This document shows, piece by piece, positions 6,315 to 6,856 of a stretch of 64,000 nt of DNA. The notes beneath the pieces were generated by a model. That model was not told where the DNA came from and did no database searches. It saw only the letters and a program-made list of their open reading frames with translations. The translations under genes were made by a program, and so were the position numbers. Position 1 is the stretch's first letter, and each line of letters opens with the position of its first letter. Location of the stretch: the NCBI RefSeq assembly GCF_055900595.2, contig NZ_CM148325.1; one strand, given 5' to 3'.

Positions 6315-6856
6315 TTTATTAATTATCTTATGTAGCTGAGTATTAGGTGACAAATGATCAGTCTTTCCCACGACAATTGTATCGTTCTGATGAACTCATA
6401 TTGACGCATTTTTCGGGCGTATCAGTCCCCGGTGTTACGAATGGTGCATACGAACGATCGCAGTTTGACGATGGTTGATTTATTTTGTTGCGCAGGGGCA
6501 ATCGCCTGCTAGGTACCGAAGGCTGGCTCTGAAGTACTGAGTCGGGTGATCGCGTCTGGCCGCTGGCTGCGAATTACTGACACGGGATTGGTGGCAGGTG
6601 ATGAAATCCTGTCCCGGAAATGGCTCCGGATTGATTCAAGTTCTGACCCGCTGTCAGCCCGCGTGGTTGCTGCTCTGGCTCATTTCCTGTCGTCAGTTTT
6701 CTCATGCCCGGCTGCGGGTTTTCGGACTGAATGATAATATCTGACGACAGGAGTCGCTCATCTATCGAAGGTAAATCTCCCTGAAAGTAATAGTTCTGGC
6801 AGGGGGAACAGAACTGTAATCATTGTACCGTAATTTGAGTTGGCTACCTTTGCTAC

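Follow-up and report, generated by a model that had tools for sequence, protein, structure and literature searches.

A probable IS66-family right-end relic at the likely junction of sucrose-utilization and hns modules in an Escherichia coli island

What fills the gene-free DNA between a sucrose operon and an hns paralog in an Escherichia coli genomic island, and how did it come to lie there? The window that we analyzed is a stretch of 64,000 nucleotides of E. coli DNA, in which positions 6315-6965 are 100% identical to many RefSeq chromosomes. In those chromosomes the locus is part of an island beside tRNA-Phe, on the pheV side, next to yqgA. A tRNA-Phe (GAA) gene at 17814-17889 on the minus strand forms the island boundary, and a near-identical genome carries a tyrosine integrase gene just inside it. 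Thus, the first ~17.8 kb of the window are island (GC 0.451), and the remainder is core chromosome (GC 0.511).

The gap begins after scrR, a 335-aa LacI-family open reading frame (ORF) at 5307-6314 and the final gene of scrK-Y-A-B-R. Beyond the gap lies an H-NS-like gene on the minus strand, for which PGAP gives, in most genomes, a 157-aa CDS equivalent to window positions 6866-7339. Since this intact CDS sets the far edge, the gap spans 6315-6865, or ~550 bp; the spacer reported in the initial annotation (6315-6856) is therefore real, with its end placed 9 bp short. PGAP left the gap of a 100%-identical genome without annotation. In 200-bp windows, the GC content reaches 0.54 to 0.565 over 6400-6700, as opposed to 0.375 to 0.43 on either side. 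By segment it is 0.517 for 6379-6802, 0.312 for 6315-6378, 0.397 for 6803-6865, and 0.44 for hns, so that the description of the spacer as GC-richer than its neighbors holds for its core and fails for its two flanks. The features discussed below are listed in Table 1.

Table 1. Positions of the features in and around the gap, as window coordinates
Feature	Position	Strand	Basis or remark
AT-rich filler, 64 bp	6315-6378		GC 0.31; between the scrR stop codon and the IS tip
Probable IS66-family right-end relic, ISEc49-like, 424 bp	6379-6802	-	Blastn, multiple alignment, Pfam on reference copies
Terminal inverted repeat (IRR), GTATCGTTCTGATGAACTCATATTGACGCA	6379-6408		Tip is G6379; alignment to intact IRRs
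Relic part with apparent ancestry unlike the scr-free island	6379-6520		Includes the 13-nt insertion 6418-6430
Decayed 87-codon frame	6471-6734	+	In-frame TAG at 6510-6512; judged not a gene
16-bp subterminal direct repeats	6531-6546 (GAAGTACTGAGTCGGG), 6571-6586 (GAATTACTGACACGGG)	+	Degenerate third copy 6603-6618
Hairpin, 12-bp perfect stem TCCTGTCGTCAG / CTGACGACAGGA, 44-nt loop	6685-6752		Stem arms 6685-6696 / 6741-6752
Last 14 codons and stop codon of tnpC, LPELLLSGRFTFDR*	6758-6802	-	Same alignment column for the stop codon
3' flank of the hns paralog, not IS-derived	6803-6865	-	Common to strain 165, unrelated to IS66 copies
H-NS-family paralog, frameshifted here	6866-7340	-	Pfam Histone_HNS_N, E = 1e-19

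The core of the gap is very probably a dead right-end fragment from an insertion sequence in the ISEc49-like subgroup of the IS66 family. Blastn against plasmids returned matches of 71 to 77% identity over query positions 33-418 (window ~6392-6777), with E values of 1e-55 to 1e-77 and the annotations "hypothetical protein" and "IS66 family transposase." Wherever the neighbors were intact, the matching segment was found directly 3' of an IS66-family tnpC that lay on the strand opposite to the query. This arrangement was seen on pRK1 of E. coli W, on one F plasmid, where an "ISEc49 family" element splits the tra operon between trbE and traF, and at four other loci. In an alignment of ten sequences, every copy starts at an identical GTA position, and the DNA outside is unrelated in each. 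The tip region of the relic reads GTATCGTTC...AACTCATATTGACGC, the latter motif being common to intact copies, and its IRR matches the IRR of locus L011 (GTATCGTTCCGGCGAACTCATATTGACGCA) at 27 of 30 bases. IS66-family inverted repeats are said to begin with GTAA, a description attributed to Han et al. 2001.

Two intact copies served as references. The element in locus L007 (4988-7753) is 2,766 bp long and has a perfect 8-bp target duplication, GAATGAAG; the one in locus L006 (4988-7760) is 2,773 bp long and has the equally perfect duplication CAGAAAAC. The left and right inverted repeats of L006 agree at 23 of 27 positions, and a Pfam search of L007 identified DDE_Tnp_IS66 (1.4e-89), TnpB_IS66 (3.3e-35), DDE_Tnp_IS66_C, zf-IS66, and LZ_Tnp_IS66. 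In both copies, the segment homologous to the relic is situated between tnpC and the tip, inside the 8-bp duplication, which is a reported hallmark of IS66 (PMC6778807). Given the adjacency to tnpC, the common tip, the 8-bp duplications, and the Pfam domains, the segment corresponds to an IS66 right end, from the IRR tip to tnpC.

What remains of the element is the IRR, a non-coding tail of ~360 to 380 bp, and the end of tnpC. At 6760-6758 on the minus strand, the tnpC stop codon (TGA) stands in register with those of intact copies, and the 14-codon remnant, which corresponds to the end of the Pfam domain DDE_Tnp_IS66_C, reads LPELLLSGRFTFDR, compared with LAELLPLEGFTFSG at the C terminus of intact TnpC. 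The right boundary of the relic was set by alignments that included strain 165, whose DNA is intermediate between the window and intact tnpC ends; the case for the 14-codon homology depends on 45 nt together with this intermediate. Homology to the IS extends up to ...TTCTGGCAG at 6802. Past that point both hns-linked lineages read GGGGAAC..., and the DNA up to 6865, shared with the 81%-identical hns-paralog locus of strain 165, has no relation to IS66 copies.

Missing from the relic are tnpA, tnpB, most of tnpC, and the left inverted repeat (IRL). A tblastn search with five TnpC proteins against the window region gave nothing significant, and no left end or flanking 8-mer duplicate could be placed at the relic. 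The relic is not an intact mobile IS66 element, and it cannot transpose because it has one end only and no transposase. Its non-coding tail is 76 to 92% identical to intact copies over 6446-6696, and against the sampled intact copies the tnpC-proximal part, 6697-6802, reaches only 54 to 59%; the searches recovered no intact IS with above 90% identity to the window version. The low tnpC-proximal identity indicates that the parent was a distinct, unsampled IS variant. The relic also carries a 13-nt insertion (6418-6430) and a 7-nt insertion. The proposal that the spacer could be the remnant of a deleted gene was thus correct in kind: what was deleted was a mobile element, and the remnant is nearly all non-coding, with 14 tnpC codons left. 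What the segment matched in the databases was an IS66 right end, not an intact known gene.

Like ISEc49-family elements (PGAP "IS66-like element ISEc49 family"; relatives IS679 and ISEc8), the relic has the GTA tip followed by AACTCATATTGACGC, a tnpC stop codon in register with the C-terminal ELL...FTF residues kept, the hairpin, and the subterminal 16-bp repeats. Unlike them, it comprises ~424 bp of a ~2.77-kb element, with one end and 14 tnpC codons. Ends of such elements also occur in other combinations. In O157 Xuzhou21 (locus L004), a 146-bp fragment of an IS66 right-end tip lies at 5801-5946, the tip of a second, different IS66 right end follows directly from 5947, and the adjacent tnpC is split by an IS682-type element; L005 has the same arrangement. 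The double tip has the appearance of an IS that landed in the end of another IS.

Among 5,426 complete E. coli genomes searched by megablast, the whole gap was present in 106, and the part 6445-6720 was found at 82 to 85% identity in more than 500 others, where it was unannotated or called "hypothetical." The plasmid matches came from Shigella, Escherichia, and one Serratia. The IS66 subgroup has a narrow distribution and was seen almost only in E. coli and Shigella. A phage origin was rejected, as blastn gave no match in 50,697 phage records.

We compared the DNA on both sides of the relic with loci that carry only one of its two neighbors. In ~870 E. coli genomes, a 96.5%-identical scrKYABR resides in the core chromosome between ygcE and queE, and the homology of this locus to the window stops at the scrR stop codon, 6314/6315. 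What normally follows scrR, a comparison proposed in the initial annotation, is a canonical GC-rich terminator in the chromosomal copies (SaT040; L016 7085-7130), which is absent from the island and plasmid copy. The filler contains a weak AT-only hairpin at ~6309-6326 that overlaps the scrR stop codon. The 63 bp that follow scrR were found solely in the 151 genomes and plasmids in which the scr-IS arrangement is present. Further scr regulons, from Klebsiella, Leclercia, and other plasmids, are ~74% identical, and their homology ends inside scrR; they are therefore uninformative on the flank.

The converse arrangement, relic and hns paralog without scr, was found in two forms. In TUM1881, the stump and hns are 100% identical to the window from 6521 rightwards (6521-6806 and on). 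To the left of this point the identity is 81% over 6446-6520, 40% over 6418-6445 (with 13 gap positions), and 87% over 6379-6417, and the DNA left of the IS tip is unrelated to the window. In ~30 genomes, of which strain 165 was examined, a scr-free locus near glcBA carries an hns paralog diverged from the window to the 81% level, together with a further truncated stump that has the same stump/flank junction at the same 81% level. The sharp break in identity near 6520, which falls within the relic, suggests that recombination crossed over there. The end of scr homology at the scrR stop codon, the link between relic and hns without scr, and this break together support the view, raised in the initial annotation, that the site is a seam between two island modules.

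IS66 copies are documented substrates of homologous recombination (PMC6778807). IS66-mediated deletions in Agrobacterium pAt plasmids (PMC6778807) offer a parallel, in which a repeated IS serves as the homology patch for module exchange; the signature of such an exchange in the window would be the abrupt change from 81-87% to 100% identity at ~6520. In the Agrobacterium case, however, whole IS copies recombine and one intact copy remains, whereas here one partner would already have been a truncated stump and the product a mosaic stump.

The scr module also resides on plasmids. On F plasmids of the p98201 type, scrR, the filler, and the relic as far as 6776 are present at ~97% identity, and on p98201 the scr module occupies the plasmid leading region. 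There (L003 8463-9081) the relic is followed by an N-terminal fragment of an ISL3-family transposase and then by IS1. This transposase pseudogene was considered as the missing tnpC and rejected, because it is an ISL3-family fragment (Zn_ribbon_ISL3, DDE_Tnp_ISL3); the plasmid breakpoint at 6776 is therefore a separate, later truncation, distinct from the window breakpoint at 6802. Since the scr F plasmids share the post-junction arrangement, they have a common origin with the island.

A history that would account for these arrangements starts with an IS66 element next to hns. An old deletion would have removed tnpA, tnpB, most of tnpC, and IRL and, in doing so, joined the stump to the DNA 3' of the hns paralog. 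A second copy of the IS end may later have recombined homologously with the stump, crossing over near 6520 and exchanging the left-hand DNA; this exchange would have put scrKYABR, cut at the scrR stop codon, and the 64-bp filler beside the hns backbone of the pheV-tRNA island. We infer the order of events (deletion first, recombination later) from a few genomes. The higher GC content of the relic probably reflects its foreign IS origin, and the relic is presumably now functionally inert. The gap is for the most part ordinary, unannotated IS debris at a module junction. The result assigns an unannotated gap of ~550 bp, would pinpoint the seam between the sucrose-utilization module and the hns-bearing backbone of the pheV island, and holds no new biology unless the IS66 right-end tail proves functional.

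The tail contains two ordered features, the hairpin and the 16-bp repeats, both of which belong to the IS and not to the island. In intact copies (L006, L007, L010, and L012), three 16-bp repeats, GAAGTACTGAC-CGGG, are set at an exact 33-bp spacing, at +140, +173, and +206 from the IRR tip, and they occur at the right end only (5129-5210 in L007). The spacing in the window is 40 bp because of a 7-bp insertion. Exactly one 33-bp repeat unit has been lost in L009. The hairpin begins ~7 nt past the tnpC stop codon in intact copies, and the literature searched contained no account of the IS66 3' non-coding tail. The right end of this IS66 subgroup, with its ~360-bp tail, three repeats, and hairpin, might accordingly be an undescribed functional module of which a piece was possibly co-opted beside hns; we regard this as unlikely. 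If true, the module would be an array of binding sites for the transposase or an accessory protein, or a regulatory RNA, and the piece beside the hns paralog would perhaps have been put to a new use, such as forming the 3' end of the hns-paralog mRNA.

It is likewise improbable that the relic, or just its hairpin, functions as an RNA or cis element. Such an element could be a stem-loop that ends or stabilizes the tnpC mRNA and was co-opted as the 3' end of the hns-paralog transcript, or an antisense or regulatory RNA that the IS encodes and that is transcribed inward from the IRR. The hairpin is much stabler than shuffles (z of -4.0 on the plus strand and -4.5 on the minus strand) and lies 114 to 181 nt downstream of the hns paralog in the same orientation. 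Despite strong divergence of the loop, all nine copies retain the stem, and 98% of cells are paired on the plus strand; one pair has changed from U-A to C-G, and others pass via G-U (plus strand). However, 9 of its 12 pairs are invariant, and covariation did not rise above the shuffled controls (73 of 500). The diversity available for this comparison is limited to E. coli and Shigella copies, since a 22-mer from the IRR, searched in one genome for each of 100,044 species, was found only in two MAG contigs. The sequence after the 12-bp stem is GTCGCTCA on the plus strand and AAATGAGC on the minus strand; with no U-tract after the stem on either strand, the hairpin is not a canonical intrinsic terminator, and a scan for such terminators found none in 6315-6865. 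The IRR contains no convincing promoter. An Rfam scan of 5800-7800 produced three chance-level matches (E of 6 to 9, and 16 to 24 bits against thresholds of 36 to 51), and the region as a whole is no more stably folded than shuffled sequences (z of -0.6 and -1.2), whether treated as single-stranded DNA or folded on either strand. The small-RNA locus offered as an option at the outset finds no support in these results; what the region does hold is one stable, conserved hairpin.

The relic has nevertheless been retained beside the hns paralog across ~19% divergence, and its hairpin part is conserved in the diverged lineage to the same level as the hns CDS (81%). This is more than expected for wholly inert DNA and counts against the best explanation, an inert IS relic. 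The retention beside hns and the IS66 tail leave a small chance of function.

The same tail contains the ORF on which a protein-coding reading would have to depend. The 62-aa GTG ORF at 6546-6734, described initially as lacking recognizable features, does exist; it is the 3' part of the 87-codon frame, and several ORFs of 43 to 48 aa in the ORF list also overlap the gap. Pfam and NCBIfam had no match for it. A methyltransferase remnant was considered, as the residues "MVDLFCCAGA" resemble SAM-binding motif I, and rejected on the empty Pfam and NCBIfam results and the lack of conservation of the frame.

The 87-aa frame, or its longer forms of up to 158 to 171 aa in some IS copies, would be a real small protein if it were an accessory gene read inward from the IS end and pseudogenized here by the in-frame TAG. 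This is very unlikely. The frame is intact and annotated by PGAP in TUM1881 (WP_247150219.1), and in L004, L010, and L012 it is open for 135 to 136 codons, stop to stop. Minus-strand frames, however, are equally long, and the frame is broken in four of nine copies, including apparently active ones: L006 has a 1-nt insertion, L009 has a 1-nt insertion and a 33-nt deletion, L011 has a 1-nt insertion, and L007, with its fresh target duplications, has lost the ATG and has a TGG-to-TGA change. Variable columns are distributed over the three codon phases as 38, 27, and 40 of ~99 each (chi-square of ~2.8, not significant). With no excess at the third position, no frame on either strand thus shows coding constraint.

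Database searches gave the frame matches of a particular kind. A word-indexed search of 5.8 billion proteins found 84 predicted proteins that match it, all ragged "hypothetical" pieces of 48 to 171 aa at differing offsets, nearly all from E. coli and Shigella, plus a single Salmonella sequence. HMMER, run in full over 1.84 billion representatives, yielded only fragmentary, high-identity matches and no distant family. Such raggedness is what gene callers typically produce on a repeated DNA element. PGAP sometimes calls proteins of 47 to 87 aa on the same DNA at IS non-coding ends (WP_247150219.1 and others); it calls none in window-identical genomes, and the window frame has a stop codon. The evidence indicates that the ORF is a decayed spurious frame, not a gene, which marks the "hypothetical protein" calls there as spurious. 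With no intact known gene found and the family and frame tests negative, the initial view that the spacer holds no convincing gene stands.

The chance that the relic is instead a single-strand promoter or initiation element of a plasmid leading region (Frpo/ssi-like) carried into the island is negligible: copies do occur on conjugative F-type plasmids, close to hok and traT remnants, and, in O157 islands, next to debris of plasmid origin, and the conserved tip includes a TTGACG hexamer, but the plasmid copies are always an IS66 end at an arbitrary site (such as between trbE and traF in the tra operon) with a target duplication, the hexamer belongs to the IS inverted repeat, and neither strand, folded as single-stranded DNA, has more structure than shuffled sequences (z of -0.6 and -1.2, as above). 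The IS66-relic reading thus remains the preferred one for the core of the gap.

The hns paralog that bounds the gap is itself altered in the window. An extra C at 6974-6976 (CCC, compared with CC in most genomes), a 1-bp insertion in the alignment, shifts its frame, so that the window ORF (6966-7340, minus strand) is 124 aa long, ends in TWVW*, and is without the C-terminal DNA-binding part. APEC O2-211 and Eco_23-2667 are among the matches with 100% identity across all 569 bp; the majority of the other matches sampled cover 567 to 568 bp. A second hairpin, at 6793-6816 and spanning the IS/hns junction, was examined as a terminator for hns and rejected, its 7-bp stem (6793-6799 / 6810-6816) being unconserved in strain 165 and its z value +0.14. 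Upstream of the paralog, in the divergent intergenic region that it shares with an outer-membrane-protein gene, four GATC sites are clustered within 35 bp at 7533-7567 (ATCGATCGAT...CCGATCGAT...GATCACATCGATCGG), compared with a window average of one per 277 bp. This cluster could be a Dam-methylation-dependent switch.
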